Origin: Candidatus Peribacteria bacterium
Lineage (GTDB): Bacteria; Patescibacteriota; Gracilibacteria; Peribacterales; Peribacteraceae
Length of the DNA stretch: 64,000 nucleotides
Assembly: GCA_041691135.1 (NCBI GenBank)
Contig: JBEPVF010000006.1
Location: forward strand, 1 to 64,000
Direction of reading: 5' to 3'
The notes beneath the pieces were generated by a model. The model had not been told where the DNA came from and made no database searches. It saw only the letters and a program-made list of their open reading frames with translations. Positions 27,564 through 46,654 of this stretch are shown piece by piece; the stretch's first letter is position 1, and each line of letters begins with the position of its first letter. The translations under genes were made by a program, and so were the position numbers.

Positions 27564-27613
27564 TTGACAGGCTTGGTTGCGGCATGTACGTTGGCTGCAA
27601 CGTAACCGCTTAC
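27564..27613 (+). promoter_or_regulatory. Promoter with LacI-type operator, upstream of the transporter-lacI genes
   Basis: TTGACA-N17-TACGTT followed by GTAACCGCTTAC (27602-27613). Confidence 0.6.
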
Positions 27614-27695
27614 TTATTGGTGAGTTTGAGGTGTGGAGCGCTCTGGAAGGGCAGCGGCAGTTTGGGTTTGGAGAAAGAACAGGCAACGGCAACTG

Positions 27696-27835
27696 CGAAA
27701 TACAGGGGTCTCTCCACTTCGCTTCGCTCCGGTCGAGATGACGTGCTGTTTTGCTGATCCGGGCTGGATGACTTGCTGTTTTGTTGGTTCGGTCGAGATG
27801 ACTTGCTGTCTTGCTGGTAGGGCCTGGATGACGTT
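27696..27835 (-). repeat. REP family A copy with 30-bp tandem units
   Basis: Core 27696-27743; GATGAC recurs every 30 bp. Confidence 0.88.
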
Positions 27836-28037
27836 TCTATAGAGTTGCGATCGTGGTTTTGAGTTAAGCAGGTTGGAGGGTGGAGGGTTTGCGATGGATT
27901 TTTGGCGTGGCGTGAGGACGATTGTGACTGACAGCCACTTTCTGGTACCTTTTTTTGTGCTGATCGCCGGGATCGCCCTGTTGGTGGTGCTGCACTAGGG
28001 GGTGAGTTTGCTCGGGGTTGGTTGGCTGCAGTCAAGG

Positions 28038-28140
28038 CGAAATACAGGGGTCTCTCCACTGCGCTTCGCTCCGGTCGAGATGACGTGTTTATTGCTGCTT
28101 CGAGAGATGACGTACTTTATTGCTGCTTCGATCGAGATGG
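28038..28140 (-). repeat. REP family A copy with partials
   Basis: Core 28038-28085. Confidence 0.88.
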
Positions 28141-28177
28141 CTGGTGATGTTTCTGAATGGATGATGTTGGATAGAAC

Positions 28178-29479
28178 GTGGAGACGTGTGTGGGAAGTGC
28201 GGTAACCAAGGTGCAAAAAAACGGGATGTCGCTGCATGGCCTGGGCGTCGTCTGCGGGTTGACGGCGGGAGTGTGGCTGGGCGCGGCGGAGGCTCCGACG
28301 AAGCTGGTGAATGCGGGCTTCTCTCCGTTTGCGATCTCGCTGTGCATGGTGGCGGGGGTGTTTACGGCGCGGTGGACGTTTCCGACGCTGCTGAAAGGGA
28401 CGAGCTATGTCTTCGCCGACCTGTTCGATAAGAAGCACCTGATCGTGTGGGCGCTGCTGGCTGGGGCGCTGTGGGCGGTGGCCAATACGCTGACCGTGTT
28501 TGCGATTCGCGATGTGGGGCTGGCGGTGGCGTTTCCGCTGTGGAATACGAACTCGCTGATCGGGCTTTTGTGGGGGCGGCTGCTGTTTCGCGAACTCGAA
28601 GGAGCCAGCGGGAAGAACATCGGCAAGGTGGTTTTGGGGACCGCGGCCATTGTGGCTGCAGCGGTGATGCTGGGCTTCAGCACGCTACATGGTGGGACGG
28701 CTACGGGCCATAACGCGGTAGGCGGGATACTGGCTGCGGCTGGCGCGAGTTTGATGTGGGGGACGATGTATGTTCCTTACCGGAAGGCTTATCTGAGCGG
28801 GATGAATCCGCTGTCGTTTGTGACTGCGTTTACGGTGGGGGAATTGAGTACGGTGTTTGGGCTGACGCTGGCGCTCGATGGCGGGCTGCACTCTCCCTCG
28901 TTCCAGTTGTTTCATCTGCGCGGCATGGTGTTCTGGCTGTTTCTGGGCGGGTTTGTTTGGGTGATCGGCGACCTGTTTCAGCAGTTCGCCACGAAGTATG
29001 TCGGGATTGGCAGGGGGATTCCGCTGTCGAATACGAACCAGCTTTGGGGGCTGGCGTGGGGCGCGCTGGTGTTTGGGGAGCTGGCGGCGGCGGACCATCG
29101 GCATAAGGTGCTGGTGGTGACGGGATCGTTGGTGATGATTCTGGGCGCGCTGGCGATCAGCACGGCGGTGGCTTCGGCGAAGGAGCAGACGTCGACCAAC
29201 GAGGCGGTGCTGCGGGAGTGTGAGCGCTATGGGCTGGACTATAACCGGACGATGATGGCGATGGCCGGCGACGAGTTCAATACGCGCAACGAGAAGCGGC
29301 GCTGGTGGGACTATCTGATTATTGCAGCGGCTACCGGCGTGTTTATCTGGCTTGGCGTGCGGGCGGTGGTGCCTCCGCTGGCGATGAATGTTCGCTGGAT
29401 CGCTGCGCTGGGCGCGGTGTTGCTGCTGAGCCTGATTGCAGGGACCTGGAGCTTGTGGAAGAGGACTCGGTTTTCGTAG
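28178..29479 (+). CDS. GRP/DMT-family sugar transporter
   Basis: Many TM helices in two DMT-like repeats (GLAVAFPL / GIGRGIPL); start uncertain (28178-28226). Confidence 0.8.
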   Translation: METCVGSAVTKVQKNGMSLHGLGVVCGLTAGVWLGAAEAPTKLVNAGFSPFAISLCMVAGVFTARWTFPTLLKGTSYVFADLFDKKHLIVWALLAGALWAVANTLTVFAIRDVGLAVAFPLWNTNSLIGLLWGRLLFRELEGASGKNIGKVVLGTAAIVAAAVMLGFSTLHGGTATGHNAVGGILAAAGASLMWGTMYVPYRKAYLSGMNPLSFVTAFTVGELSTVFGLTLALDGGLHSPSFQLFHLRGMVFWLFLGGFVWVIGDLFQQFATKYVGIGRGIPLSNTNQLWGLAWGALVFGELAAADHRHKVLVVTGSLVMILGALAISTAVASAKEQTSTNEAVLRECERYGLDYNRTMMAMAGDEFNTRNEKRRWWDYLIIAAATGVFIWLGVRAVVPPLAMNVRWIAALGAVLLLSLIAGTWSLWKRTRFS

Positions 29480-29508
29480 GGCTTTGGGGCTGACGAGGAG
29501 AAGGCATA

Positions 29509-29575
29509 CCCCCAGGGGCTAAAGCCCTTTCTGTTTAATTATTTAGAAGGCCAAGGCTGAAGCCTTGGCGTACCT
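29509..29575 (+). repeat. Palindromic repeat family C
   Basis: CCCCAGGGGCTAAAGCCC...GGCCAAGGCTGAAGCCTTGGC. Confidence 0.7.
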
Positions 29576-29604
29576 AGAGGCCAGAGCAAATGCAAGGGCA
29601 ACGA

Positions 29605-29822
29605 CGAAATACAGGGGTCTCTCCGCTGCGGCCTGCGGCCTTCGGTCGAGATGACGTTGGTTGATTGGCCGACAAGCGAGGTGACGTTGGTTGGTGGATG
29701 GCCTGCGGTCGAGATGACGTGGGTTGGTCGATGGCAGACGAGCGAGATGACGTGGGTTGGTCGATGGGCCGATGGTCGAGATGATGTGGGTTGGTTGATT
29801 GGCCGACAGGCGAGATGATGTA
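29605..29822 (-). repeat. REP family A copy with ~30-35-bp tandem units
   Basis: Core 29605-29656; CGAG(A/G)TGA(C/T)GT repeated five more times. Confidence 0.88.
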
Positions 29823-29863
29823 GGTTGGTATGCTTCAGATGTGGAGAAGTTTCAGGAGCGGAC

Positions 29864-30886
29864 ATGGCTGTAAGGCTGAAAGATATTGCGCGTGATTTGG
29901 GAGTATCTGTCGTCACTGTGTCGAAGGTGTTGCGGGGTAATGCCGATATTGGAGAAGAGACCCGGCGGCGCGTGCTGAAGCGCATGAAAGAGCTGAACTA
30001 TCAGCCCAACATGATGGCGCGGGGACTTGCCAGCGGGCGTACCTATACCGTGGGACTGGTGGTTCCGGACCTGGTGCATCCGTTCTTTGCCGAGTTTGCC
30101 AAGTCACTGAGCGGTGTTTTGCGGACGAGCAAGCGGGCGCTGATTCTGGCTTCGTCGGAGGAAGACCCGGAGATTGAGCAGCAGGAGATACGGACGCTGC
30201 TGAGCCGGGGGATTGACGTTCTGCTGATCGCGTCGTGCCAGGCTAGCCTGCGCAACTTCTATGAGCTGGGCGATGTGCGGACTCCGTACCTGCTGTTTGA
30301 CCGCAACTTTGCTCATCTGGCCGCGCACTTTGTGGGCACCGACGATGTGAAAGTCGGGGAGATGGCGACCCGGCATTTGATCGAGATTGGACGGAAGCGT
30401 ATCGCCCATATCGGCGGGAAGAACACCAGCCCTTCGTTTGATCGTTTACGTGGATACAGGAGCGCGATGGCGGAGCATCGGCTGATTGTGCCCGAAAGCT
30501 ATGTGCTGGTGCGGGACCGGGTGGAAGAGACGGGCGATACCGCCGGGTTTCAGGCCATGCAGGAACTTCTGCGGCTGGACCCTCGGCCGGATGCGGTTTT
30601 TTGCTACAACGATTTGACCGCCATCGGAGCGATGGAAGCGACGCTGCAGGCGGGTTTGCGGGTGCCTGAGGACATTGCGTTCATCGGCTGCGGAAACCTG
30701 CGCTATGCGGATTATCTGCGGGTTCCGCTGAGCTCGATCGACCATGGGACGACTGAGCTGGGGCGGATTGCGGGCGAGTTTGCGCTGGACCTTTCGGCGA
30801 AGCCGGAGCAGACTCCGCGGAGTGTGCTGTTGGAGTCGACGCTGGTGGTGCGGGAGTCTACGGTGAAGGGGGCGGGCCGGAGATGA
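29864..30886 (+). CDS. LacI family transcriptional regulator
   Basis: LKDIARDLGVSVVTVSKVL HTH; YQPN; CYNDLTA; SD AGGAG. Confidence 0.95.
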   Translation: MAVRLKDIARDLGVSVVTVSKVLRGNADIGEETRRRVLKRMKELNYQPNMMARGLASGRTYTVGLVVPDLVHPFFAEFAKSLSGVLRTSKRALILASSEEDPEIEQQEIRTLLSRGIDVLLIASCQASLRNFYELGDVRTPYLLFDRNFAHLAAHFVGTDDVKVGEMATRHLIEIGRKRIAHIGGKNTSPSFDRLRGYRSAMAEHRLIVPESYVLVRDRVEETGDTAGFQAMQELLRLDPRPDAVFCYNDLTAIGAMEATLQAGLRVPEDIAFIGCGNLRYADYLRVPLSSIDHGTTELGRIAGEFALDLSAKPEQTPRSVLLESTLVVRESTVKGAGRR

Positions 30887-30927
30887 TCTTCGGCCACTCT
30901 GTATCTGTGAGATAACGGCATAACGGA

Positions 30928-31464
30928 TTATTTGACGCCGTTCGCAGGGTTCCACGAGCCTTGTTCTTTGCGGACGTAGATGATCTGACCGATGTGATAA
31001 GCATTGTGCGTGCTGATATTGGCGATGGTCGGCGCCCAGGCTTCGAGCTTCTTCTCGTCGGCGGATTCGACGGCCTTCTCCCATTCGGTAAGGACCTTGT
31101 CTAATTGCTGAACGGTAGCTGCCCACTGCTTGTCGTCGAAGGCGTTGAAGGTCTCGTCGTTATTGCCGCTGAACTTCGCCAGCGGCTTGCCTTCGAACTT
31201 CTCCAGATTGCGCGTGTCCCAGAAGATGAGATGGTTTGCCAACTGTCCGACGGAGTGGTTTCCCTTACTGTCGGTCCATTTTGCCTGCTCCGCAGTCAGG
31301 CCGGCTACGGCTACGTTTGCGGGGACAAACCATTCTTCCTTGTTGTGGGTGGTTTGAAGTTGATGAAGAAGGATGCTTCTGAGGGTGGGCGCAGTCTTTG
31401 TGGGAGCCTGTGCCGATGCCTGAAACGGTAACGAGAATAGAAGAAGGAAGAGAATCGGCTTCAT
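30928..31464 (-). CDS. Secreted DinB-family protein
   Basis: Signal peptide; HSVGQLANHL and HNAYHIGQI. Confidence 0.82.
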   Translation of the reverse strand: MKPILFLLLFSLPFQASAQAPTKTAPTLRSILLHQLQTTHNKEEWFVPANVAVAGLTAEQAKWTDSKGNHSVGQLANHLIFWDTRNLEKFEGKPLAKFSGNNDETFNAFDDKQWAATVQQLDKVLTEWEKAVESADEKKLEAWAPTIANISTHNAYHIGQIIYVRKEQGSWNPANGVK

Positions 31465-31566
31465 AGTGTGAGCCTTCACGGTTCTGTGGAAATCATTCTG
31501 AAAATCCTTCAAAGTTTACTAAAGAAACCGATTTTGGGTGGGGAGAAGAAAATCTAATCATCCCGC

Positions 31567-31609
31567 TTGCCAGTGTAGTCTTTCCGGGGCTACTATAGTT
31601 AGCGGTAAC
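31567..31609 (+). promoter_or_regulatory. Promoter with LacI-type operator, upstream of the inositol oxygenase
   Basis: TTGCCA-N18-TACTAT immediately followed by GTTAGCGGTAAC (31598-31609). Confidence 0.6.
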
Positions 31610-31646
31610 GCGAACCGCAGATGTTTCGCGCCGAGGGAAGGTTCTT

Positions 31647-32507
31647 ATGGCAACGACAGCAATCTCAACCGACGCCCCGCTGAAGGACATTGATGAGTGG
31701 GACGAATTTTTAACCGGGCGCTATCAGGAAGGCAAGAGCGAGGACGAGTTCCGTCAATATGATGAACATGCGACCCCCGGTGTCGCTGAGTTCTATCGCC
31801 TGAATCATCAGCACCAGAGCTTCGATTATGTGATGGCGAAGGAGAAGGAGTATTTCGGCCTGAACAAGGGCGAGAAGAGCATCTGGGAGGCAGCGGAGTT
31901 TCTGAACACGCTGATCGACGACAGCGATCCTGATACCGACCTGACCCAGATCGAGCACCTGCTGCAGACCTCGGAGGCGATCCGCAAGGATGGGCATCCG
32001 CGCTGGTTTGTGCTGACCGGCTTCATTCATGATCTGGGTAAGGTGCTGTGCCTGTGGGGCGAGCCGCAGTGGGGCGTGGTGGGCGATACGTTTCCGGTGG
32101 GCTGCGCTTATTCCGACCAGATCGTTTTTCCGCAATACTTCAAGGCGAATCCCGACATCAACAACGCGCTGTATCAGACCAAGTACGGCATCTACGAGCC
32201 GAACTGCGGGCTGAGCAAGGTGCATCTGTCATTTGGACACGACGGCTATATCGGCGAAGTGATGAAGAATTACATGCCCGAAGAGTCGCTGTACATGCTG
32301 CGCTATCACTCGTTCTACTCGGCCCACCGGCATGGCGCGTATCGCCACCTGATGAGCGACCACGATGTGAAGATGTTCGAGTGGGTCAACAAGTTCAACG
32401 TGTATGACCTCTATTCGAAGGGGCATACCAAGCCGGATTTGAAGGAGCTGAAGCCCTACTACGACGATCTGTTTGCCGAGTTCTTCCCGGCCAAGATCGC
32501 CTGGTAA
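31647..32507 (+). CDS. myo-Inositol oxygenase (MIOX, HD-type di-iron)
   Basis: DDSDPD, QIEHLLQT, HDLGK, PQWGVVGDTFPVGC, GHD, RYHSFY and DLYSK; the di-iron ligand motifs are present. Confidence 0.93.
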   Translation: MATTAISTDAPLKDIDEWDEFLTGRYQEGKSEDEFRQYDEHATPGVAEFYRLNHQHQSFDYVMAKEKEYFGLNKGEKSIWEAAEFLNTLIDDSDPDTDLTQIEHLLQTSEAIRKDGHPRWFVLTGFIHDLGKVLCLWGEPQWGVVGDTFPVGCAYSDQIVFPQYFKANPDINNALYQTKYGIYEPNCGLSKVHLSFGHDGYIGEVMKNYMPEESLYMLRYHSFYSAHRHGAYRHLMSDHDVKMFEWVNKFNVYDLYSKGHTKPDLKELKPYYDDLFAEFFPAKIAW

Positions 32508-32537
32508 CGGAGACTCTCCCAGGAGTTTTCACTGAGC

Positions 32538-32577
32538 AGCCCCGAGATTGCGAGAGCTTTTTCGGGGCTATTTTTTT
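32538..32577 (+). terminator. Hairpin/terminator after MIOX
   Basis: AGCCCCGAGA...TTTCGGGGCT followed by ATTTTTTT. Confidence 0.6.
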
Positions 32578-32606
32578 GATTGTGGTGGTGGGTGGTAAGT
32601 GCTCGA

Positions 32607-32740
32607 GGCTTAACACCGATTTGCACTGATGACACCGATCTGGAACGGCAACGGCAACTGCGAAATACAGGGGTCTCTCCACTGCGCTGCGCTCCGGTCG
32701 AGATGACGTGCGGTATTGGTGGTTCGGTCGAGACGACGTG
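32607..32740 (-). repeat. REP family A copy with AGGCTTAACACCGAT flank module
   Basis: Core 32661-32708. Confidence 0.88.
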
Positions 32741-32774
32741 ATTTTGAGATGGGGTTTTAAGAAAGGAAGAGGCG

Positions 32775-33542
32775 ATGTCGAAGCGTTTGGTTGGCGGTAC
32801 GGCGGGTGTGGCGGGGCGGAACATCTTTATCTCTCCGGGCAACAGCTCGATGCGGGAGATGAGCTATGGCAGGATTCGTCTGGGGGCAGATGAGCGCCGT
32901 GTGAGCTTTACCAACGACGGCCAGGAGACCGGGCTGGTGTGCCTGAGCGGTGCGGCGACGGTGACGGTGGGGGAGGAGCGCTTTGAGCTGCAGACCAGGG
33001 ATGCTCTCTATATCTCGAAGGGACTGCCGGTGACGGTGGAGACGGCTTCTGAGGTCGACCTGGTGGAGTGCTCGGCGGTGGTGGAGGGGGAGTACCCGGT
33101 GCAGTTCGTTCCTTATGCCAGCGTGCAGGCGGATGAGAAGCTGCACTTTGTCGCGGGCAATGAGAGCTCGAAGCGTGAGATCAATATCATGCTGGGAACG
33201 AATGTGAAGGCGGGACGGCTGGTGGTGGGGGTGACGAGTTCGCTGCCGGGCAACTGGACGAGCTGGCCTCCGCATGAACATGCGGCGATGCTTGAGGAGA
33301 TCTACGTGTTCTTCGATATGCCGGCGCCCGCGTTCGGTCTGCAACTGGTGTATACGGACGGGATCTCTGCCGCCGAGGTGGAGGTGGTGCGTGACGGGGA
33401 TGCGGTGCTGCTGCCGGAGGGCTATCACCCCAACGTGGCGATTCCGGGGAGCGAGTTGAATTTTGTTTGGATGATGGCGGCGCATCGCGAGGTGGTGGAC
33501 CGCCAGTGGGGCGTGGTGACGGTGGACGCTCGATTTGCCTGA
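32775..33542 (+). CDS. iolB: IolB/KduI family cupin isomerase (5-deoxy-glucuronate isomerase-like)
   Basis: GNWTSWPPHEH, LEEIY, GYHP and FVWMMA. Confidence 0.85.
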   Translation: MSKRLVGGTAGVAGRNIFISPGNSSMREMSYGRIRLGADERRVSFTNDGQETGLVCLSGAATVTVGEERFELQTRDALYISKGLPVTVETASEVDLVECSAVVEGEYPVQFVPYASVQADEKLHFVAGNESSKREINIMLGTNVKAGRLVVGVTSSLPGNWTSWPPHEHAAMLEEIYVFFDMPAPAFGLQLVYTDGISAAEVEVVRDGDAVLLPEGYHPNVAIPGSELNFVWMMAAHREVVDRQWGVVTVDARFA

Positions 33543-33787
33543 GTTGAGATAATGACCTAGTGAACTGAATCCGGTGATTGCGCATGTTTATTGCGGGATC
33601 ATGGACTGTTCACCGTAGATTCATCCAAAGACAGCATGATGGAGCTGTGTCTCTTTTGCTTCGACATGCTGGTCGTTGTAGTTTTCGCTAAAGGTCAACG
33701 ATGTTAGATATAAAATATATGATTCTAAAAGAGTTATATTGCTATTTCTGTATGCTTACGTTATCGGTGCCGTTAGCGGATTTTTGG

Positions 33788-33817
33788 TTGACAATGGTTC
33801 TCCCCGATGCGTAATGT
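33788..33817 (+). promoter_or_regulatory. Promoter of the TonB-dependent receptor
   Basis: TTGACA-N18-TAATGT; partial operator GTTAGCGG at 33772. Confidence 0.5.
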
Positions 33818-33921
33818 TCGTTGCGGTTGAACTACGGTAGCAAAGTTGTGAAGCGTAAACGCGGATGATGCCGCTGCGCTGATATCACCAGTGAAGTTTA
33901 TTTTTCGGGAAGGCAGGACAG

Positions 33922-36900
33922 ATGATGCAAAGCATGCAAAGAGTAAGACCGAATGATTCGGGCGATGGGTCGACGGGGACATGGGGATGGCTGCGGCTGG
34001 TGCTGGCAGTTCTTCTGCTGTTGCCGGCGCTGCAGTGCTATGGGCAGTTTGAGTCGGCTTCGGTGCTGGGCTATGTCAGGGACACGACGAGCGCCGCGAT
34101 TCCGAACAGCAAGGTGACGCTGACCAACGTGGCGACGGGCATTCAGCAGACGGCGACGACGGACGCCGAGGGACGCTATGAGTTTTCGAGCGTGCAGATC
34201 GGCTCGTACAAGGTCCTTGGCGAGGCGCAGGGCTTTCAGCAGACGCAGACGCAGGCCTTCACGGTGACGACCAATGCTCGCCAGCGCGTCGACCTTGCGC
34301 TGAAGGCCGGGTCGGTCGCAGAGACGGTGACGGTATCGGCGGCGCCGACGGCGCTTGAGACAGAGACCAGCTCGCGCGGCCAGGTGATTGGGGAGCGTGA
34401 GGTGGAGAATCTTCCGCTGAACGGCCGCTCCTATGCTGACCTTGTTCTGTTGGCTCCGGGCGTGCGCAAATCGACGCTTGAGAACCAGTCCGCATCGAGC
34501 CGCGAGGGCGCGTTCAACGTGAACGGCCAGCGCTCTGCGTTCAATAACTTCCTGCTCGATGGTTTGGACAACAACAACTACGGCACGTCGAACCAGGGAT
34601 TTGCGAATGAGAACATTCCGCCATCGCCTGATGCGGTGAGCGAGTTCCGGGTTGAGACCAGCAACTACTCGGCAGAGTATGGCCGCGCTTCGGGCGCCGT
34701 CATCAACGTGTCGACCCAGCGCGGCGCGAACAAGTTTCATGGCAAGGCTTATGACTATCTTCGCAACACGAACCTGAACGCGATTGGACCGTTTCAGCCG
34801 GCGGGTGGGATCAAGCAGACCTTCATTCGCAACCAGTTCGGCGGAACGTTCGGCGGGCCGATCAAAAAGGACCACACCTTCTTCTTCGTGGACTATGAAG
34901 GGCTGCGTCAGATCTTCCGCAACCAGGTGTCGACGGTGACGCTGCCGAACGCGGAGCAGCGCCAGGGCATCTTCCTGTTCCACTATAAAGACCCCTCGAT
35001 TGCGCCGACGCCGATTACGCTGCGCAACCCGATTACCGGTACGGTGTTTACGTCAGGAAACGTCTCGGCAGAGGCGACTCCGTTTGCCAAGGCTGTGCTT
35101 GCCGCGCTGCCGGGCAACAATGCCACGTCGGTTACGGGTGGCGGCCCCGGTGCGGTTGCTTATGACACCATCGCGAACAACTACATCGCTTCTCCGCGCG
35201 GCACGATTGAGGACAACAAGGGCGATGCGAGGATCGATGAGACCTTCAACCAGAAGTGGAGCATGTTTGCGCGCTACAGCGAGCATCGCGGGACCATCTT
35301 CGACCCGCCGACGGTGCTGGGCCGCGCCGGTGGCAATGGCAACTCGAACGTTCACCTGCTGAACCGCCAGATCGCAGGCGGCGCGACCTGGATTATTTCG
35401 CCTACGAAGCTGCTGGATATTCGTTTTGCTTATACGAAGAACCAGGGCGCGAAGACTCCGTATGGGCAGGGTGACGCTTCGCTGCTGACGGAAAACGGCA
35501 TCACCAATGGCGTTCCCACCGATAAGAGCATTGTGCGCGATCTGAATGCGCAGTCGGTGTCGGGCTTTACGCAGTTCGGTGCGCAGTCTTCCAGTCCGCA
35601 GTTTCAAAACCCCACGATCTACGATCCGAAGGCTAACTTCACCTGGGTTCGCGGTCGGCACTCGATGAAGTTCGGCTATGAGTACCAAGCGGTCAATACG
35701 CAGGTCAACGACTTCAACCCCAGCTATGGGCAGGACAACTACTCGGCTGGCTATGCGGCCGTCCCGGTCTGCAACGCTGCGGCCCCGGTTTCGCCTTGTG
35801 TGCCGTCGAAGCCGTCTGATCCGGCGCAGGGAAGCAGCGCTGTGGCAGCGCAGCTCTCGCAGGCGGCGAACCTTGCCGACTTTCTCTTCGGCAATCAGTC
35901 TTCGTACTCGTTGACGAACTACACCGTGGTGAACCTGCGGCAGCGGTTCAACTTTATGTATGTGCAGGACGACATCAAGGTTTCGCCGACGCTGACGGTC
36001 AATGCCGGTCTGCGGTACGAGATCGCGACTCCGCAGTGGGAGCGCGACAACAAGCTCGCGAACTTTGACCCGACAACGAATACGCTGATCCAGGCGAAGA
36101 ACGGCAGCATCTATGACCGCGCGCTGGTGCATGTTCCGATGAAGAACTGGGGACCGCGCTTTGGGTTTGCCTGGAGCGGAACACCGAAGACGGTTGTGCG
36201 TGGCGGCTACGGCATCAGCTATACGCAGTACAACCGCGCGGGCGGCGAAAATAACCTGACCTATAACGGACCGAACGTGGTCAATGCTTCGATCAACAAT
36301 CCAGCTCCGACTACCACCGACCGTTGCGCTAACGACACGCAAGACCAGACGGCTTGCTTCCGCCAGATGCAGCAGGGCTATGCGGTGGGGCTGACGAGTC
36401 CTTCCAACTTCGACCCGAAGAAGGTGACGTCGCGGTATATTCCGAAGAACTTTGCGACGGGTTATGTGCAGAGCTACTTCTTCGGCTTCCAGCGCGAGCT
36501 GCCGTGGGGAATGGTGATGGACATCTCCTATGTCGGCAACAAGGGCACCCACCTTCAGGTGCTCGCCGACTACAACCAGGCGACGCCTTGCCTCAATGCA
36601 GGAGGAGTGGGCTGCGCGACTTACCAGTCGCGCCGTCCGGTAACAACGTTTGGCGATATCGAGATCGCTTACGGCGGTAACTCCTCCAGCTATAACTCGC
36701 TGCAGGCCAAGCTGGAGAAGCGTGTCGGTGCGCTTTATCTGCTGAACTCGTTTACGTGGGGCCGCGCGTACGATCTGGCTTCGGGACATCTTGAGACCAG
36801 CAACGGCGACAACTCTCGCGTGAACTTTACAAATCCGCGCAACGACTATGGTCCGTCGGGCTATGACCAGCCGATCAACAATACGCTTTCGATTGTGTAT

Positions 36901-37461
36901 GACCTGCCGTATGGTCATGGACGCAAGTTCGGGGCGAACTCGAACTTCCTGATCAATGCGGTGCTCGGCGGATGGCAGACGACTCTCATCAATACGTCGA
37001 CAAGTGGTTTGCCTTTCAATTTGAACTACAACAGCTCAGCCAACAATCCGCTGTATACGTCAGATCTGGTGACTCTGCGTCCGCAGTTGACCATGGCGGG
37101 TGCGAAGATCAAGAACCCAACCTCGAAGCAGACCAAGACAGCCACAGCGCTGAAGGGGTATCTGGACGGAACTTATCTGGCGGTGCCATCGGTGGCATTG
37201 GGAAACACCAATGCGTATGGCAATATCTCGCGTAACAAGCTTCGTTCCTTTGCTTACTTCGATACAGACCTCGGTCTGCACAAGGCGTTCAACCTATGGA
37301 GCGACTCCTCCAAGCTGGACTTCCGCGCCGAGGCCTTCAACGTACTCAACCAGGTGGACTACCAGGCACCGGATGGCAATATCATCGACGGAGCTTTCGG
37401 TAGCATCACCAGCGCTTATCCTGCACGACAGCTTCAGCTTGCCGCGAAGATTATCTTCTAG
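33922..37461 (+). CDS. TonB-dependent receptor (Oar-like, carboxypeptidase-regulatory N-domain)
   Basis: LPLNGR, NGQR...FLLDG, RNQFGGTFGGP and FRAEAFNVLN...RQLQLAAKIIF. Confidence 0.93.
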   Translation: MMQSMQRVRPNDSGDGSTGTWGWLRLVLAVLLLLPALQCYGQFESASVLGYVRDTTSAAIPNSKVTLTNVATGIQQTATTDAEGRYEFSSVQIGSYKVLGEAQGFQQTQTQAFTVTTNARQRVDLALKAGSVAETVTVSAAPTALETETSSRGQVIGEREVENLPLNGRSYADLVLLAPGVRKSTLENQSASSREGAFNVNGQRSAFNNFLLDGLDNNNYGTSNQGFANENIPPSPDAVSEFRVETSNYSAEYGRASGAVINVSTQRGANKFHGKAYDYLRNTNLNAIGPFQPAGGIKQTFIRNQFGGTFGGPIKKDHTFFFVDYEGLRQIFRNQVSTVTLPNAEQRQGIFLFHYKDPSIAPTPITLRNPITGTVFTSGNVSAEATPFAKAVLAALPGNNATSVTGGGPGAVAYDTIANNYIASPRGTIEDNKGDARIDETFNQKWSMFARYSEHRGTIFDPPTVLGRAGGNGNSNVHLLNRQIAGGATWIISPTKLLDIRFAYTKNQGAKTPYGQGDASLLTENGITNGVPTDKSIVRDLNAQSVSGFTQFGAQSSSPQFQNPTIYDPKANFTWVRGRHSMKFGYEYQAVNTQVNDFNPSYGQDNYSAGYAAVPVCNAAAPVSPCVPSKPSDPAQGSSAVAAQLSQAANLADFLFGNQSSYSLTNYTVVNLRQRFNFMYVQDDIKVSPTLTVNAGLRYEIATPQWERDNKLANFDPTTNTLIQAKNGSIYDRALVHVPMKNWGPRFGFAWSGTPKTVVRGGYGISYTQYNRAGGENNLTYNGPNVVNASINNPAPTTTDRCANDTQDQTACFRQMQQGYAVGLTSPSNFDPKKVTSRYIPKNFATGYVQSYFFGFQRELPWGMVMDISYVGNKGTHLQVLADYNQATPCLNAGGVGCATYQSRRPVTTFGDIEIAYGGNSSSYNSLQAKLEKRVGALYLLNSFTWGRAYDLASGHLETSNGDNSRVNFTNPRNDYGPSGYDQPINNTLSIVYDLPYGHGRKFGANSNFLINAVLGGWQTTLINTSTSGLPFNLNYNSSANNPLYTSDLVTLRPQLTMAGAKIKNPTSKQTKTATALKGYLDGTYLAVPSVALGNTNAYGNISRNKLRSFAYFDTDLGLHKAFNLWSDSSKLDFRAEAFNVLNQVDYQAPDGNIIDGAFGSITSAYPARQLQLAAKIIF

Positions 37462-37488
37462 CTGCGAGTTATAAATCACTGGAAATAT

Positions 37489-37519
37489 CTGCGGCACCGT
37501 CTTCAGGGCGGTGCCGCAG
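37489..37519 (+). terminator. Intergenic stem-loop between the receptor and PI-PLC
   Basis: CTGCGGCACCG...CGGTGCCGCAG perfect 11-bp stem; weak T tract. Confidence 0.55.
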
Positions 37520-37556
37520 TTCATTGCAAAAAAAATCAGATTGAGTAGAGGCAGAT

Positions 37557-38714
37557 ATGACTGTGTATCAAGCAGCTCGCACTTGTTTTGCCATCGCTGC
37601 ATTTGCCATTGGTGGATTAGCGTTGGCGCAGCAGCCGACTGCTGCTGAACAGGATCAGCGGGTTCATGTCAATCAGATACAAGTGATTGGTTCGCACAAT
37701 AGCTACCATGAGGGGTTTCCGCCAAGCGCGAGGAAGCTGATGGAGAGGATGAGCCCGGAGGGATTGCATGGGCTCGATTATCATCACGCTCCGCTGGCCG
37801 ATCAGTTGTCGGGAGGCGTGCGGCAGATAGAGATTGACGTCTACGCCGACAGCAAGGGCGGCAGGTATGCGCATCCTGCGATTCTGGGTATGGTGGCGAA
37901 GGCTGGATTGCCCGCCGATCCGGAGTTCGATCCCGAGCATGTGATGGGCAAGCCGGGATTCAAGGTGCTGCATATGCAAGATATCGATGTGCGCAGCACC
38001 TGCATGACGCTTATCGCCTGTCTCACCGATGTTCGCGATTGGTCGAAGCAGCATCCTCAACATCTGCCGATTTTTATTTTGATTGAGACGAAGGAAGGTA
38101 AAGATCGTAATCTTCCGAATGCAGTGGTGCCGGAACCATTTACTGCTCCTGTATTCGATGCGCTGGATAAGGAGATTCGATCGATCTTCAAGACAGACGA
38201 GATGATTACGCCGGATGATGTGCGTGGCGATTCGGCGACGTTGGTGGAGGCTGTCCATGCCGGAAGATGGCCCACGCTGGCGCAGGCTCGCGGCAAGGTT
38301 ATTTTTCTGCTGGACCAGAGGCACGTCGAGCCGATTTATACGAAGGGACATCCCTCGCTGCGTGGGAGAGTGTTGTTTACCAATGCGCAACCGGGCGCTC
38401 CTGATGCGGCGTTCACGGAAGAGAACGATGGATCGCGTGAAGAGATTGATGCGCTGGTGAAGCAGGGCTATCTGGTGCGGACGCGGACTGATGAAAGTAC
38501 GGATCAGGCGCGCACGAACGATACGACGCGGCGCGACCTTGCGCTTTCGAGCGGTGCGCAGATGATTAGTACCGATTACCCGCCTTCAGAGCCTTCGCAG
38601 TGGACGAAGTATGTTGTTGAATTTCCGGATGGGCTGGTGGCTCGATGCAATCCGGTGACGAAGCCGGTTGGATGTGTGGATAAGCTTTTGGCTCCTTCTG
38701 TCAGTGCTCACTGA
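37557..38714 (+). CDS. Secreted phosphatidylinositol-specific phospholipase C-like phosphodiesterase
   Basis: Signal peptide; GSHNSYH, GVRQIEIDV, VLH.QDID, PIFILIETK and GAQMISTDY. Confidence 0.85.
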   Translation: MTVYQAARTCFAIAAFAIGGLALAQQPTAAEQDQRVHVNQIQVIGSHNSYHEGFPPSARKLMERMSPEGLHGLDYHHAPLADQLSGGVRQIEIDVYADSKGGRYAHPAILGMVAKAGLPADPEFDPEHVMGKPGFKVLHMQDIDVRSTCMTLIACLTDVRDWSKQHPQHLPIFILIETKEGKDRNLPNAVVPEPFTAPVFDALDKEIRSIFKTDEMITPDDVRGDSATLVEAVHAGRWPTLAQARGKVIFLLDQRHVEPIYTKGHPSLRGRVLFTNAQPGAPDAAFTEENDGSREEIDALVKQGYLVRTRTDESTDQARTNDTTRRDLALSSGAQMISTDYPPSEPSQWTKYVVEFPDGLVARCNPVTKPVGCVDKLLAPSVSAH

Positions 38715-38790
38715 CGGGAGGGGTGGCGTTTAATGGCGGTTATTTTGCAGTTGCCGGGCTCGAAAAGACAGGCAAAGGCAAGAACAGCGA

Positions 38791-39032
38791 CGAAATACAG
38801 GGGTCTCTCCACTGCGGCGGCAAAAGCGCCGCCTTCGGTCGAGATGACGTCTTTTGGGCTGGGTTGAGCTTGCTTCGGTCGAGATGACGTGCTTTCGGGT
38901 TGGGTTGAGCGTTTAGAGCCCTTGCTATGGCAGGTGCCGGGATAAAGCGAACAGGCAAAGGCAAGAACAACGACGAAATACAGGGGTCTCTCCACTGCGG
39001 CGGCAAAAGCGCCGCGTTCGGTCGAGATGACG
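38791..39032 (-). repeat. Two near-identical REP family A copies (local duplication)
   Basis: Cores 38791-38849 and 38974-39032 share flanks. Confidence 0.88.
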
Positions 39033-39084
39033 TCTGTATGGAGATTCGATTTAGAGCTTCTTAGGATGTTTAATTAGTATCCGG

Positions 39085-40584
39085 CTACTTCGAGAAGTTG
39101 AGGTAGATGGGATTTCCGACGATGAGAAGAGCGCCGCTTTGGGAGCGGACGTTGACTCGGAGCCAATGCCGCTTGCCGTCGCTTTGATAGTCGAAGTTCC
39201 TTGTCTCCTCGTTCTGGTTTGCGGCGGATGCATCGAGTAAGGTGGTTGGCTGGCCATCGACAATGATCTCTGCGTGGTCGCTGGCGAGGGCGGCCATCTT
39301 GAGGGTGAAGTGAATCTGTTGCCCGGCTGGAGATTGAACTTCGTCTCCCATCATTGCCATGCCTGTATCTGTCTTTGCAGTAAATTCGATGGCGCGGTCT
39401 TTTGATCCCTGCGCATCGACGAAGACGTGGCCTGCGCGGATGGCGTCGAGGATGGCGTTCTCGGATAAGTTCGCGGCATAGATCACGGTTGCAGGATGAC
39501 CGATGGCGGAGTAGGTTTGCGGTTTGAGATCGGCATCGTGGTTATCGCTGCCGCCCAATGCTGTTAGTCGAAATCCATTGTTGAGTTGCTGCTGCCAGAG
39601 TGGGATGCCAGAGTGCGGGCCGTCGGCCATGCCTCCATTGATTACTTCGATGGCTGTGACTCGGCTGAAGTCCGTGTTGGGAACTGTCCATCCGCAACCC
39701 ATGCACGACTCTCCTGAAGGGATGCCGGGATGATTGATGGAGAGGATGCCGTGCAGGCGCTGCACTTCGTCGAGCAGGTGATTGAAGTCAGGGACGTGCG
39801 GGCTGGTCAGACGGAAGTCGATGAAGTCTGTAGGGCCGTAGACGTTGGCGTGTCCCTGGAAGGTGGTGATCTCGCGGGCAGGTATCAGGAGCAGGTGATC
39901 GAAGTAAGGTTGCAGCTCGCGCATGTCGTTATATTGCGAGATGGTGTTGTGGTCGCTGATGGCGATGAAGTCGAGACCTCTTTCGGCTGCGGTCTCGACG
40001 GTCTTGTAGAGAGGGCAGGGAACTTTCTTGCCGGACTGGCTGAGGCATGAGCCGTCGCTGTGTGCGTCGTGCATGTGCAGATCGCCGCGATACCATGCGG
40101 GGCCGGGACGCAGAGGGGCCTGGCTGAAGGTGGAGGCGTCGGGCTTGTCGCCAGCGTGCGAGAAGTGAATTTTAGCTTCGTATTGAGAGCGAACACCTTC
40201 CCGGATGTTAGGAACGCCGAGTATCAGCTTCCATCTGCCGGGCACGATGGGGCCGGGAAGATACGACGGGGTGGAGTCGGTCGCTGATACCGTAAAGGTT
40301 GATTTATTGCCGCCGCTCCATCCGCGGAAGCGCTGGCTGTCGAACATGCCGAGGTCGATGCTGGTGTGCTTATCGCGTTCGGTATAAGAGAATTCCACGG
40401 TTACGCGGGTGACGCCTTTGGGCACTTCAAAGGGGACCTCGACGTAGCTCTGGTGATTGGCATAGGTGATTGTTCCGTGCAGATCGAGATCGGAGGATGG
40501 CTTCTGCGCGTGGCATGCTGGCGAGGTAAAGGCGGCGAGGAGGCAGACGAAGATTGCCGCGGTGCTGAAGGAGAACAATCTCAT
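39085..40584 (-). CDS. Secreted PHP-family (CehA/McbA-like) metallohydrolase
   Basis: WYRGDLHMHDAHSDG, ISDHN, INHP and GGSDNH; start set at MRLFS. Confidence 0.85.
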   Translation of the reverse strand: MRLFSFSTAAIFVCLLAAFTSPACHAQKPSSDLDLHGTITYANHQSYVEVPFEVPKGVTRVTVEFSYTERDKHTSIDLGMFDSQRFRGWSGGNKSTFTVSATDSTPSYLPGPIVPGRWKLILGVPNIREGVRSQYEAKIHFSHAGDKPDASTFSQAPLRPGPAWYRGDLHMHDAHSDGSCLSQSGKKVPCPLYKTVETAAERGLDFIAISDHNTISQYNDMRELQPYFDHLLLIPAREITTFQGHANVYGPTDFIDFRLTSPHVPDFNHLLDEVQRLHGILSINHPGIPSGESCMGCGWTVPNTDFSRVTAIEVINGGMADGPHSGIPLWQQQLNNGFRLTALGGSDNHDADLKPQTYSAIGHPATVIYAANLSENAILDAIRAGHVFVDAQGSKDRAIEFTAKTDTGMAMMGDEVQSPAGQQIHFTLKMAALASDHAEIIVDGQPTTLLDASAANQNEETRNFDYQSDGKRHWLRVNVRSQSGALLIVGNPIYLNFSK

Positions 40585-40673
40585 GGCAATCATTATGGCA
40601 GCATCGTGCTGGCGCTGTAATGAAGAAGGTATGACGATGATGTTTTGGAATTGAAAAAGGGCAACGACAACGG

Positions 40674-40734
40674 CGAAATACAGGGGTCTCTCCACTACCC
40701 CTTCGATTTCGCTCAGGGTCCGGTCGAGATGACG
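40674..40734 (-). repeat. REP family A copy
   Basis: Same insert type as the 9730 copy. Confidence 0.88.
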
Positions 40735-40755
40735 TTATTTTCGATGGAAGAGAGA

Positions 40756-41334
40756 TTACTTCCAGGCGCGGGACCACTTTGGTCCGGCGGTGTCTCCCGT
40801 GCGGAGGCGGGCGTCGATGCCTGCGGTCAATTCGATGAGCCTGCCGAAGAGCCAGATGAGATCGGAGAGCCGGTTGAGGTAGGCGATGATCTCGGGCTTT
40901 ACCTCTACGCCATTTTCTGCGAGTCGCACGGCGTTGCGCTCGGCGCGGCGGCACACGGTGCGAGCGACCTCGTAGGCGGCGGATTCGGTATGCGCGCCGG
41001 GAAGCGACCAGTCGGAGAGGATGCCCTCGGTTGCCTCGATCTGGTGGACGAGCTTTGTCAGCGTATCGACATCGTCGAGCGAGATGATGGGAGCGTTCTT
41101 CTGGTTTTCGGGAGGGGTGGCCAGAGCGCCTCCTACGCGGAAGAGTGTTCGCTGAATCTCTTCGGTCCAGTTGCAGATTTGCTGGTGATGGCAGATGCTG
41201 CGGGCAAAGCCGAGTACGCTGTTCAACTCATCGACTGAGCCGTATGCCTCGACGCGCAGGTCTGCTTTTGAGACGCGCACGCCGCCAGCTAATCCTGTTT
41301 GCCCGCGGTCTCCTTGGGTGGTTGCAATGCTCAT
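40756..41334 (-). CDS. ATP:cob(I)alamin adenosyltransferase (PduO-type)
   Basis: TTQGDRGQT, AYGSVDELNS, ARTVCRRAER and YLNRLSD. Confidence 0.92.
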   Translation of the reverse strand: MSIATTQGDRGQTGLAGGVRVSKADLRVEAYGSVDELNSVLGFARSICHHQQICNWTEEIQRTLFRVGGALATPPENQKNAPIISLDDVDTLTKLVHQIEATEGILSDWSLPGAHTESAAYEVARTVCRRAERNAVRLAENGVEVKPEIIAYLNRLSDLIWLFGRLIELTAGIDARLRTGDTAGPKWSRAWK

Positions 41335-42728
41335 CGCTTGTCTCCTTGTATGCTTTGCTGCGTGGCTGTGCGTGCGTCTCTGATTAAGTCAGGTAGCCCG
41401 ACGCCGCGATATCCATTTCCTAAAAGGTATAGCCCATCGAGGCTTCGTACGCGCTCATCGAGTTCCTGCATTCGTTCCAGGTGGCCGACGGCGTATTGGG
41501 GAAGGCTCTTCGGCCAGCGCCGCACCACGGTGATCTGAGGCTCGGGCAATGGGCCGAGGATGTGCGCCAGTTCGAGCCGAGCAACGGAGGATACTTCGTC
41601 ATTGCCGCAGTGCATTAGTCGCTCAGCAGCGTCTCCGCCAAAGAAGGCGCGGATCAGCTTTCCATTTTGCGGTACGCGGTGGGCGTACTTCTGGTCTACA
41701 AAGGTACAGGCGAGCAGGCGGCTTCCCGATCCCTGCGGCACTAGAAATCCGAAGCCCGGCGGAGTGAGAAATTTTGTCGCGTCGGGAAATCCGAAGGCTA
41801 CGACTACCGCGGAGCTTGCGTCCATCTCCATGAGCTTGGCGGCGCGGCCATCAATGGGTAACAGCAGCTCTCGCGCGATGTGTGGGGGAGCGGCCATCAT
41901 GACGGTATCGAATGTTTCTTGCGAGGTGGAGGTCTCGAGTTGCCAGCGGTCGTGGCTGCGTGAGATGGATCGGATCTTCGTTCCCAAACGAATCCAGTCT
42001 TTGGGAATGGTTGCGATCATGCCGTCGATGAGCGTTCCCAATCCGCTTTGTAGCGTGGTGAAGACGGGAGACTGCTTGTTGCCGCTCGCGGTAGCGCGGG
42101 CCTGCATTGCGGCGATCAGGCTGCCGTGCTCGCGCTCCATCGCAACGAAGGGAGCCATGACGGCACGCACGCTCAACTTCGTCACATCTCCGCCGAAGAC
42201 GCCGCGCAGCAGCGGAGCGCCGATGGTTGCGAGCACTTCTTCGCCGAAGTGCCGCTGTACGAACGATGCGACGCTCTCGTCTTGTTGCGGTGCGCTGGCC
42301 TTGAGTTCTTCTGCTCGATTCACCTCGGCGTGAAAGGCTTGTTTTGCCTCTGCGCTGAATAAGTCCGATTGGTCGAGAGCGTCGAGGTTGGATGGAACCA
42401 TCATGCGCATTCCATCGGGCATCGCTTTGAGTTGGCCATCCATCACGATATAGGTCTTACGCGTGGCGTCATTGGAAGGCATGACTTGGTCGGCGAGGCC
42501 AAGCTCTTCGGCGAGTTCGCGGGCCCAGGGTTTTTCTGTCACCCAGGCATCGGGGCCGCATTCGATGACGAAGCCGCCTTCGCGCACGGTCTCGACGATG
42601 CCGCCTAGTCGTGGCGAGGCCTCGAAGAGCACGGCTTTTACTGCCGCTCCGTTGCCTGCGAGACGCGATAATTCATAGGCTGCCGTCAAACCTGCGATGC
42701 CGCCACTGACGATTGCTATCCGCTTCAT
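41331..42728 (-). CDS. hemG: Proto/coproporphyrinogen oxidase (HemY type)
   Basis: FAD-binding N-terminus, ECGPD, PGFGFLVP, PQYAVGH and YRGVGLPD. Confidence 0.9.
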   Translation of the reverse strand: MKRIAIVSGGIAGLTAAYELSRLAGNGAAVKAVLFEASPRLGGIVETVREGGFVIECGPDAWVTEKPWARELAEELGLADQVMPSNDATRKTYIVMDGQLKAMPDGMRMMVPSNLDALDQSDLFSAEAKQAFHAEVNRAEELKASAPQQDESVASFVQRHFGEEVLATIGAPLLRGVFGGDVTKLSVRAVMAPFVAMEREHGSLIAAMQARATASGNKQSPVFTTLQSGLGTLIDGMIATIPKDWIRLGTKIRSISRSHDRWQLETSTSQETFDTVMMAAPPHIARELLLPIDGRAAKLMEMDASSAVVVAFGFPDATKFLTPPGFGFLVPQGSGSRLLACTFVDQKYAHRVPQNGKLIRAFFGGDAAERLMHCGNDEVSSVARLELAHILGPLPEPQITVVRRWPKSLPQYAVGHLERMQELDERVRSLDGLYLLGNGYRGVGLPDLIRDARTATQQSIQGDKR

Positions 42729-44942: not shown

Positions 44943-45049
44943 TGCTATGCTTTTGAGCCTAGCACCAGCCGCTTGCCGCTTCCAGCGGTGGCGATTGATT
45001 TTGATACAAAAGCGACACAGATTTGTTTGAGAAGCGGCTAAAAAAATGA

Positions 45050-45170
45050 AGGCTTAACACCGATTTGCAGCGATACCGCCGATCAGGAACAGGCAACAGC
45101 AAAGACGGAAATATAGGGGTCTCTCCACTGCGCCACGCGATAAAACCGCGTGGCTCCGGTCGAGATGACG
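45050..45170 (-). repeat. REP family A copy with AGGCTTAACACCGAT flank module
   Basis: Core 45108-45170. Confidence 0.88.
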
Positions 45171-45219
45171 TGGGTTTAGAGGTTCGATGATGTGGTTCGA
45201 TGATGTTTTTTTACACCTT

Positions 45220-45465
45220 TTAGGGTTCCAGGCGGAAGGTAAACTCTTCGATTACCGGATTGGTGAGCACCTCGCGCGCAATCCGTTCGATCTCGGCCTG
45301 CGCCGCGTTCTGGTCCAATCCATCTTCCAAAGTCAGCAGGAAATACTTCCCCTGCCGTACGTCAGCAACGCCGCGATATTCCATTCGCCGCAATGCATCC
45401 GCGACTGTCTGCCCCTGGGCATCCAGCACCGTTCGTTTCAGCGTGACATAGACATGAGCCTTCAT
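45220..45465 (-). CDS. purS: FGAM synthase subunit PurS
   Basis: VLDAQG, VRQGKYF and LTNPVIE. Confidence 0.93.
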   Translation of the reverse strand: MKAHVYVTLKRTVLDAQGQTVADALRRMEYRGVADVRQGKYFLLTLEDGLDQNAAQAEIERIAREVLTNPVIEEFTFRLEP

Positions 45466-46633: not shown

Positions 46634-46654
46634 TTTAGAGTATGGAATAAATAT

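Follow-up and report, generated by a model that had tools for sequence, protein, structure and literature searches.

Several described systems bear on the locus analyzed here, which lies in a 64,000-nucleotide stretch of DNA (positions 1 to 64,000 of contig JBEPVF010000006.1, assembly GCA_041691135.1, filed as a Candidatus Peribacteria bacterium; the window from here on), and in which a gene for myo-inositol oxygenase (MIOX) is clustered with genes for a GRP/DMT-type permease, a LacI-family repressor, a KduI/IolB-family cupin, a TonB-dependent receptor (TBDR) and a secreted PI-PLC-like phosphodiesterase. The canonical Iol pathway (IolG-E-D-B-C, Bacillus subtilis) has in common with this locus the presumed substrate, myo-inositol, and a member of PF04962; it differs in that iolG, iolE, iolD and iolC exceed their cut-offs in none of five close relatives of the window's source, and in that the window cupin falls below the IolB equivalog cut-off. 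Mouse MIOX (2HUO/3BXD, EC 1.13.99.1) belongs to the same Pfam family as the window enzyme, with conserved ligand and lysine positions. Bacterial MIOX is itself already known, and active in one case, with the available part of that report describing a Flavobacterium johnsoniae orthologue that converts myo-inositol to glucuronate in E. coli, and yields glucarate together with Udh (PMC4551912). Unlike in the eukaryotic and F. johnsoniae route, the window MIOX lies in a putative bacterial LacI regulon with a TBDR, a secreted PI-PLC-like enzyme and a cupin. Such a combination is approached by PUL39 of the plant-associated Bacteroidota strain YX-36, which, according to the part of the preprint available, has a transporter, a TonB-dependent receptor, an inositol oxygenase family protein and a LacI regulator, plays a mild fitness role in plant colonization, and has a substrate stated to be unknown (bioRxiv 10.64898/2025.12.01.691665). 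PUL39 differs from the window locus in its SusD partner, in having a sodium/sugar symporter rather than a GRP permease, and in its phylum; that part of its description also names no PI-PLC-like or cupin gene.

On the lipid side, a secreted phospholipase C of Botrytis degrades plant glycosylinositol phosphorylceramides (GIPCs), as the accessible portion of that work reports, and thus offers a precedent for a secreted phospholipase C that frees inositol-phosphate glycans from GIPCs (PMC11496612); unlike the window system, this is a fungal enzyme and, in that portion, stands without a link to uptake or MIOX. The nearest solved folds to the window PI-PLC-like protein, which share PF16670 with it, are those of Streptomyces antibioticus PLC1 (3H4W) and a Pseudomonas sp. 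enzyme (5FYO/5FYP/5FYR), from which the window protein differs in its low identity (15–19%), in being ∼90 residues longer, and in its position behind a TBDR. Finally, the KduI/KduD hexuronate branch involves the same cupin family, and kin of the window cupin adjoin KduD-like SDRs. E. coli KduI helps to convert glucuronate and galacturonate, according to the available part of the source, and so provides a precedent for a cupin of this type acting on plain hexuronates (PMC3578941). Unlike that branch, however, the window cupin reaches only 59 of the 250 bits demanded by the KduI model, and a relative's true KduI lies elsewhere.

Our analysis points to an inositol-catabolic regulon under LacI control in an Edaphobacter-like acidobacterium, organized in three units and with lipid head groups as its proposed inositol source, a reading that we hold with moderate confidence; the MIOX regulon we consider real, and the inositol-lipid head-group source plausible. 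All seven genes of the cluster described in the original prediction are present at or near the positions it gave, as judged from Pfam and NCBIfam profile scores against curated cut-offs (Table 1). That prediction overlooked the DinB_2 gene located between LacI and MIOX, the repeat elements in the intergenic gaps, three palindromes resembling operators, and the misbinning of the contig. In the proposed scheme, the secreted PI-PLC-like enzyme would cut the phosphodiester of inositol phospholipids, or of deacylated or glycosylated head groups, and the TBDR would take up either the released inositol phosphate or the head group as such through the outer membrane. Phosphate would then be removed by a phosphoesterase, which in sister loci may be the Metallophos protein encoded between the TBDR and PI-PLC genes, and the GRP permease, probably an inner-membrane inositol importer, would bring in free inositol. 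MIOX would open the ring with O2 to give D-glucuronate, which would enter an isomerase pathway via UxaC encoded elsewhere in the genome and/or via the MIOX-linked cupin, with the LacI-family protein leaving three operators once an inducer appears.

Interpretation of the genomic context depends on the identity of the host, and in this respect the contig is Edaphobacter-like acidobacterial DNA that was wrongly binned, an error that inflates the bin. The bin comprises 1.74 Mb in 35 contigs with a stated contamination of 3.83%, and its 20 nearest relatives have genomes of 0.7–1.5 Mb, none of which (0/20) carries MIOX. The window MIOX is 99% identical to that of an Edaphobacter metagenome-assembled genome (MAG), 96% identical to that of Edaphobacter dinghuensis, and 90% identical to that of Tunturiibacter lichenicola, and at the DNA level the window is collinear with the Edaphobacter MAG at 87–94% identity over 29827–42065 and at 89–93% over 44000–50100, the locus being collinear with other acidobacterial genomes as well. 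The tetranucleotide composition of the first 50 kb lies at the edge of the bin's spread. A profile search of the bin placed iolG, iolE, iolD, iolC and uxaC all below cut-off; since the contig is misbinned, this result carries no weight, and the whole-genome check for iol genes and uxaC suggested with the original prediction is void on this genome, yet informative in the five close relatives considered below.

The assignment of the window enzyme as a MIOX is supported along its entire length, with the PF05153 match covering profile positions 4–249 of 249 (340.3 bits, against a cut-off of 25) and an alignment to mouse MIOX (2HUO) scoring 248 bits. H104, H128, D129, K132, H198, H221 and D254 all align with the corresponding mouse positions and are invariant in 15 relatives, which bears out the intact di-iron motifs noted in the original prediction; we take K132 to be the catalytic Lys and the other six (4 His, 2 Asp) to be the di-iron ligands. 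Although the original prediction described MIOX as best known from eukaryotes, the gene is not rare in bacteria, being found in 41 of the 201 genomes of our Acidobacteriaceae-family sample. No match to iolG, iolE, iolD or iolC was obtained on the window's contig by profile search, in line with their predicted absence from the window, and this absence extends to the five closest genomes carrying both MIOX and the cupin (4.9–5.6 Mb): at curated model cut-offs, iolG was called in 0/5 (best score 138 bits, against 355), as were iolD (0/5), iolE (0/5) and iolC (0/5). UxaC (glucuronate isomerase), in turn, exceeds its cut-off in 5/5 of these relatives, and UxuA is present in 4/5. One of the five has a UxaC that reaches 584 bits (cut-off 387) and whose gene is grouped with genes for a KDG-kinase-like protein and a KduD-like SDR. 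The search of these five genomes thus turned up no Iol route, most of the usual isomerase route from glucuronate is present in them, and the prediction that MIOX replaces the Iol route is supported.

Two side observations concern relatives. In one of them, a hexuronate cluster (locus L134, G023:C7:1043000-1057000) includes a nickel-pincer enzyme: the neighbors of its UxaC gene encode LarB, a 'nickel-dependent putative hexonate epimerase' (660 bits, cut-off 500), a KDG-kinase-like protein and a KduD-like SDR. A further genome (G024, the source of locus L014) carries two MIOX genes (C1:424259 and C2:337804) and two PI-PLC-C1 genes (C1:418364 and C2:382280), one pair lying 5 kb apart and the other 44 kb apart.

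The evidence that ties the units of the locus together is a shared operator-like palindrome of LacI type with the consensus ACGTTAGCGsTAACGT, which we scored at ≤4 mismatches. It occurs ∼50 nt upstream of MIOX in 29/51 regions and ∼150–190 nt upstream of the TBDR in 12/15, and was found upstream of the cupin in 0/9 and upstream of PI-PLC in 0/13 regions at this threshold, compared to a background rate of 0.018 sites per 230 nt, true sites included. Within 220 nt upstream, the palindrome precedes GRP in 1/34 and LacI in 2/26 regions. A GRP-type variant, ACGTAACCGCTTACTT, is present in 13 of 43 GRP-upstream regions of 700 nt, six of which share a divergent MIOX gap, and sites near-identical to O1 lie 162–222 nt upstream of GRP in five loci (L010, L011, L015, L020 and L021). 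The distance from O1 to GRP in the window, 578 nt, is larger because repeat elements are inserted between them. We note that the occurrence of the same motif at different promoters within one locus is a stronger point than the counts across loci. The pattern of sites fits three co-regulated units, GRP-LacI, MIOX-cupin and TBDR-PI-PLC, and the LacI-family protein probably regulates all three. O2 abuts a promoter-like −10 hexamer (promoter-like site at 31567–31596); a general scan of sigma-70 promoters and terminators gave no excess over shuffled sequence (3 against a shuffle mean of 5.4, and 13 against 11.6). Further weak sites in the window are located at 21197, 27588 and 36320. Among sister loci, one has an operator-like site upstream of glpK, and none was found directly upstream of GH92 or NAGLU genes at ≤3 mismatches.

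To place the locus in a wider context, neighborhoods were counted with one genome scanned per species, which gave at least 600 matching stretches, at least 568 of them encoding a MIOX relative. The counts below refer to the best 80 of these at least 568 MIOX loci, nearly all labelled Acidobacteriaceae or Terriglobales and fetched with up to 10 kb on each side; many end at contig ends, and the counts are therefore lower bounds. GRP was present in 43, LacI in 32, a TBDR orthologue (≥55% identity) in 14, PI-PLC in 13, both of these in 11, the cupin in 8 and the CehA-like gene in 4 of the 80 loci. The survey of MIOX neighborhoods proposed at the outset thus reveals a conserved core of GRP permease, LacI and MIOX, with TBDR and the PI-PLC-like enzyme as a frequent add-on and the cupin limited to one clade. 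In the family sample, PF16670 occurs in 15/201 genomes, 13 of which also carry MIOX, compared to 41/201 overall (odds ratio 36.7, for genomes that are related and not independent).

Within 7 kb of MIOX, the sister loci contain additional genes: a Metallophos phosphoesterase gene lies exactly between the TBDR and PI-PLC genes in six, and others encode a GH92 α-mannosidase (8), GH3 (4), a PfkB kinase (4), the glycerol kinase GlpK (5; 711 bits against 590), a GlpD-like dehydrogenase (4), NAGLU/GH89 (3) and an NagX-like N-acetyltransferase (3). In the window, the TBDR and PI-PLC-like genes are spaced by 95 nt (37462–37556) and are probably co-transcribed, and between 37516 and 37552 the window has nothing that corresponds to ∼1 kb of the closest relative. 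Pfam gave no SusD-type match for any gene of the locus, such that the description of the locus as similar to a polysaccharide utilization locus applies in a loose sense only.

The PI-PLC-like protein has a signal-peptide-like N-terminus, judged by eye, and matches PF16670 over the full profile. A first structural model built from 10 close homologues (mean pLDDT 50.9) was set aside, and the final model, from 71 diverse homologues, has a pLDDT of 95.2. The top 10 Foldseek matches of this model comprise 5FYP/5FYO/5FYR and 3H4W (E 7e-16 to 2e-14, target-normalized TM 0.57–0.68), followed by other bacterial PI-PLCs, eukaryotic PLC catalytic domains and GDPDs, and the protein is thus predicted to have a PI-PLC-type fold. 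At the sequence level, it aligns with two solved Ca2+-dependent PI-PLCs in the central part only (43 and 34 bits; 58 and 53 bits by profile), and H47, N48, E92, D94, K136 and H139 are conserved in ≥90% of the 71 homologues. Domain fusions were scanned starting from the best 150 of 2753 PI-PLC-C1 representatives (E ≤ 0.001), 39 of which have ≥500 residues, with 30 of these scanned. Eleven of the 30 are fused to a phosphoesterase domain (His_Phos_2 in two, AlkP, PhoD, PAP2, NPP-type and Exo_endo_phos in one each, and GDPD in four), with the others carrying a lipase or α/β-hydrolase (2), GH92 (1), an amidohydrolase (1), SLH (5), other or weak matches (5; DUF4214, HEAT repeats, SpaA_4, FlgD_ig and a below-cut-off GH43), or no further Pfam domain (5). 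These fusions mirror the partnerships seen in the neighborhoods, namely phosphodiester cleavage, phosphate removal and mannose trimming, and the set could guide substrate assignment across the family.

The cupin is labelled '5-deoxy-glucuronate isomerase' in the source annotations, as are its homologues, and TIGR04378 is its best NCBIfam match; it lies, however, below both equivalog cut-offs (IolB TIGR04378, 109.9 bits against 205; KduI NF002091, 59.1 against 250). All five close relatives (5/5) have two PF04962 genes, and the second, checked in one (G021), is a true KduI (396 bits against 250) adjoining a KDG-kinase-like gene. Matches to the cupin at E ≤ 1e-20 occur in 29 of the 201 family genomes, two of them MIOX-linked (>70% identity) and three weak, and in the other 24 genomes the copies (25 loci) show 48–56% identity and lie away from MIOX. 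The neighbors of these 25 loci include a KduD-like SDR (12), an MFS transporter (11), IclR (4) and a PfkB kinase (4), and TBDRs, an alginate lyase and a heparinase II/III-like gene also flank them; one of the 25 stems from a genome marked as unpublished (G198), and no conclusion depends on that locus by itself. In a 38-row tree, the 10 MIOX-linked cupins are monophyletic (100/100), their stem measuring 1.35 changes per site, and are nested with weak support (80/83) among the uronate-context sequences, with KduI as the outer group; comparison of the two sets yields 78 invariant positions and five fixed differences. In every case, the gene for a MIOX-linked cupin is the next one downstream of MIOX, and no operator-like site separates the two (in relatives, the gap measures ∼70–110 nt).

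Judged by these alignments and contexts, the cupin represents a third KduI/IolB subfamily with its nearest kin in uronate clusters, and is probably a uronate aldose-ketose isomerase co-transcribed with MIOX; in our reading, the Edaphobacter/Tunturiibacter clade recruited a branch of this subfamily to a place behind MIOX. A reasonable candidate substrate is glucuronate, with 4-deoxy uronates equally possible. The proposal that the cupin acts on glucuronate therefore survives as a possibility, but not as a required step: since UxaC is present in 5/5 relatives, the pathway does not need the cupin, which accompanies only 8 of the 80 MIOX loci.

Taking these data together, several points weigh against the regulon as proposed above and have to be set beside the evidence for it. 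The completeness of the five relatives is not given, and each holds 11–20 Gfo/Idh/MocA oxidoreductase matches below the iolG cut-off, among which there may be an unconventional inositol dehydrogenase. A Mannitol_dh-type fructuronate reductase was found in 0/5 of them, such that the fructuronate step would need an SDR-type enzyme. The window is without the Metallophos gene of the sister loci, which leaves the dephosphorylating enzyme unassigned; the operator counts overstate independence because the loci are related; of the 13 genomes with both PF16670 and MIOX, only 4 have them within 10 kb of each other; and, with TBDR-PI-PLC in only 11–14 of 80 MIOX loci, the core regulon may simply use free inositol. 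This last point leads to an alternative in which GRP-LacI-MIOX uses only free myo-inositol from plants, fungi or root exudate, with TBDR-PI-PLC as an independent phosphate- or lipid-scavenging neighbor. Such an arrangement would be in line with the modest frequency of the TBDR (14/80) and PI-PLC (13/80), with the 9/13 co-carrying genomes in which MIOX and PI-PLC are not within 10 kb, and with the frequent fusion of PI-PLC-C1 to phosphatases, which also fits phosphorus scavenging. We nevertheless consider it unlikely, though a serious contender, given that a related palindrome is found ahead of MIOX as well as ahead of the TBDR, in the window and in 12/15 TBDR loci, that PF16670 is almost confined to MIOX-bearing genomes (13/15), and that GlpK/GlpD, GH92 and NAGLU genes join the same loci. 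The inositol-lipid link made by the original prediction stands as a circumstantial one, drawn from the shared palindrome, the 13/15 co-occurrence, the accessory genes and the fusions.

The role of the cupin and the integrity of the locus are open to other explanations. The cupin could be an ordinary KduI-type isomerase for lyase-derived 4-deoxy-5-hexosulose uronates, merely relocated beside MIOX and with no glucuronate role, as could be argued from the KduD-like SDR, MFS, IclR, PfkB, alginate lyase and heparinase-like neighbors of its 48–56% kin, from the 78 invariant positions against five fixed differences, and from the presence of UxaC already able to handle glucuronate. However, the relatives hold a second PF04962 copy, a genuine KduI equivalog in the one checked, and the MIOX-linked cupins form one clade (100/100) with a long stem (1.35), always directly 3′ of MIOX with no operator-like site between, and we regard a mere relocation as rather improbable. 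It is far less probable again that the cupin is a true IolB (5-deoxy-glucuronate isomerase) of a cryptic Iol pathway, as its pipeline label and best NCBIfam match (TIGR04378) would have it: its 110 bits fall short of the cut-off of 205, iolG, iolE, iolD and iolC each exceed their cut-offs in 0/5 relatives, and its kin are found in uronate and not in iol contexts. As for the locus itself, an assembly or binning artefact joining genes from more than one organism might be suspected from the filing of the contig in the bin of a small-genome lineage, from the fall in GC (0.59 to 0.50) at a tRNA-Pro gene, and from the tRNA-Pro junction being bridged by no contig of four runs. Yet the whole locus is collinear with a contig of the Edaphobacter MAG at 87–94% DNA identity, and with other acidobacteria, and read depth is alike on both sides of tRNA-Pro in four runs from three studies. 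We find this explanation scarcely credible for the locus; the artefact concerns the bin.

Returning to the LacI-controlled regulon, the data from the sister loci raise the broader prospect, which we put forward tentatively and consider less likely than not, of a modular, LacI-governed inositol-lipid head-group system across the Acidobacteriaceae, in which the PI-PLC-like enzyme and the TBDR would harvest inositol phosphate or inositol-glycan head groups, add-ons would trim them, MIOX would open the ring, and a re-purposed cupin of the Edaphobacter clade would act on the MIOX product. Possible sources in such a system include phosphatidylinositol, glycerophosphoinositol, fungal and plant inositol phosphoceramides (MIPC/GIPC), glycosylphosphatidylinositol (GPI) anchors and actinobacterial phosphatidylinositol mannosides (PIMs), and interchangeable add-ons (the metallophosphoesterase, GH92, GH89 with the NagX-like protein, and GlpK/GlpD) may trim the head groups to inositol and glycerol.

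The features of the locus are collected in Table 1. The GRP permease has an ambiguous start (GTG at 28178 or ATG at 28226) and is far below the cut-off of TIGR00776 (RhaT/GlcU subfamily; 42.8 bits against 319.6). The LacI-MIOX gap measures 711 nt, compared to 272 nt in the closest relative (L009), which is without the DinB_2 gene, and this gene is an insertion compared with that relative and probably not part of the system. Membership of the PHP-type hydrolase, which the original prediction had included in the system, is doubtful, and a phosphoesterase role for it possible but unsupported: the gene is near MIOX in 4/80 loci and there is no operator-like site near the window copy, making for a weak link. 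The CehA/McbA-like protein gave no Pfam match and no PDB match by sequence, with the NF038032 match covering residues 201–533 of the long reading frame. In the nearest relatives, the gene keeps its place between the PI-PLC and hem genes, and in one distant locus among the four (L045) a TBDR-CehA-like tandem lies directly upstream of LacI, GRP and MIOX.

Table 1. Coordinates of the genes, operator-like sites and repeats of the locus, given as positions in the window.
Feature	Position	Strand	Details
Operator-like site O1 ACGTAACCGCTTACTT	27600..27615	+	Upstream of the GRP-LacI unit
Repeat element copies	27676..28141	+	Inserted between O1 and the GRP gene
GRP/DMT-type permease	28178..29479	+	PF06800, 47.3 bits (cut-off 26.3)
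Six tandem copies of a 33–34-nt unit	29637..29829	+	Directly before and overlapping the LacI start
LacI-family repressor	29825..30886	+	PF00356 and PF13377
Small secreted DinB_2-superfamily protein	30928..31464	-	PF12867, 39.5 bits
Operator-like site O2 TAGTTAGCGGTAACGC	31596..31611	+	51 nt upstream of MIOX
Myo-inositol oxygenase (MIOX), di-iron HD-domain	31647..32507	+	PF05153, 340.3 bits
Repeat element, one copy	32641..32752	+	In the MIOX-cupin gap
KduI/IolB-family cupin	32775..33542	+	PF04962, 142.2 bits (cut-off 23.9)
Operator-like site O3 ACGTTATCGGTGCCGT	33758..33773	+	164 nt upstream of the TBDR
TonB-dependent receptor (TBDR)	33922..37461	+	PF13620, PF07715 and PF25183 (CarboxypepD_reg, Plug, OMP_b-brl_4)
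Secreted PI-PLC-C1 phosphodiesterase	37557..38714	+	PF16670, 462.4 bits, profile 1–329 of 329
Secreted CehA/McbA-family (PHP-type) metallohydrolase	39085..40584	-	NF038032, 287.2 bits (cut-off 80); convergent with PI-PLC

The intergenic repeat, with the core CGAAATACAGGGGTCTCTCCACTGCG, has 17 copies in the window (113–47386), compared to 0 in 100 shuffles, and occupies four intergenic gaps of the locus, with core sites that include 27696, 28038, 29605, 32661, 38791, 38974 and 40674. Copies before 12.4 kb are without exception on the minus strand, and those beyond 24.4 kb on the plus strand; there are dozens of short matches to the element per related genome, and depth spikes at it in metagenome contigs. 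Units related to the 33–34-nt tandem repeat are also found at 32689–32745. The cumulative GC skew has its minimum at ∼18–20 kb, and the repeat orientation flips over the same stretch (∼16000–22000), which may mark a replication origin or terminus.

Beyond the tRNA-Pro gene (50016–50092), the GC content, ∼0.59 up to this point, falls to 0.50, and the closest relative ceases to be syntenic. The stretch 50016–64000 carries glycan-use genes (a GH106 rhamnosidase, a GH101-like gene, a second TBDR, and BNR and TPR genes) and none (0) of the 17 repeat copies, and we read it as an acquired island or, alternatively, as a join made in assembly. At the edge of this low-GC stretch, a frame of 125 residues (50259–50636, minus strand) matches only the first 60 positions of the α-L-fucosidase family and is probably a gene remnant.

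In a literature search that did not extend to subscription journals, we found no description of the acidobacterial regulon, its operator or its accessory gene set, nor of the near-exclusive co-occurrence of PI-PLC-C1 with MIOX or of the third cupin subfamily. In soil, inositol phospholipids and inositol phosphates make up a large reservoir of organic carbon and phosphorus, and Acidobacteria are among the most abundant soil bacteria, with substrates that are poorly known. The locus or its core is carried by Edaphobacter (including E. dinghuensis and E. paludis), Tunturiibacter (including T. lichenicola) and a Granulicella DSM strain and is thus testable in culturable strains, with the 16-bp operator, a GRP-family inositol permease, and a third KduI/IolB subfamily now labelled '5-deoxy-glucuronate isomerase' as the predictions. 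If true, the regulon would open a new way into bacterial metabolism for the membrane lipids of eukaryotes and actinobacteria, would explain the commonness of MIOX in aerobic soil bacteria, and would supply a candidate substrate class for PUL39; the modular system, if it holds, would be the first case described in bacteria of an oxygenase route that leads from the inositol lipids of membranes to central carbon.

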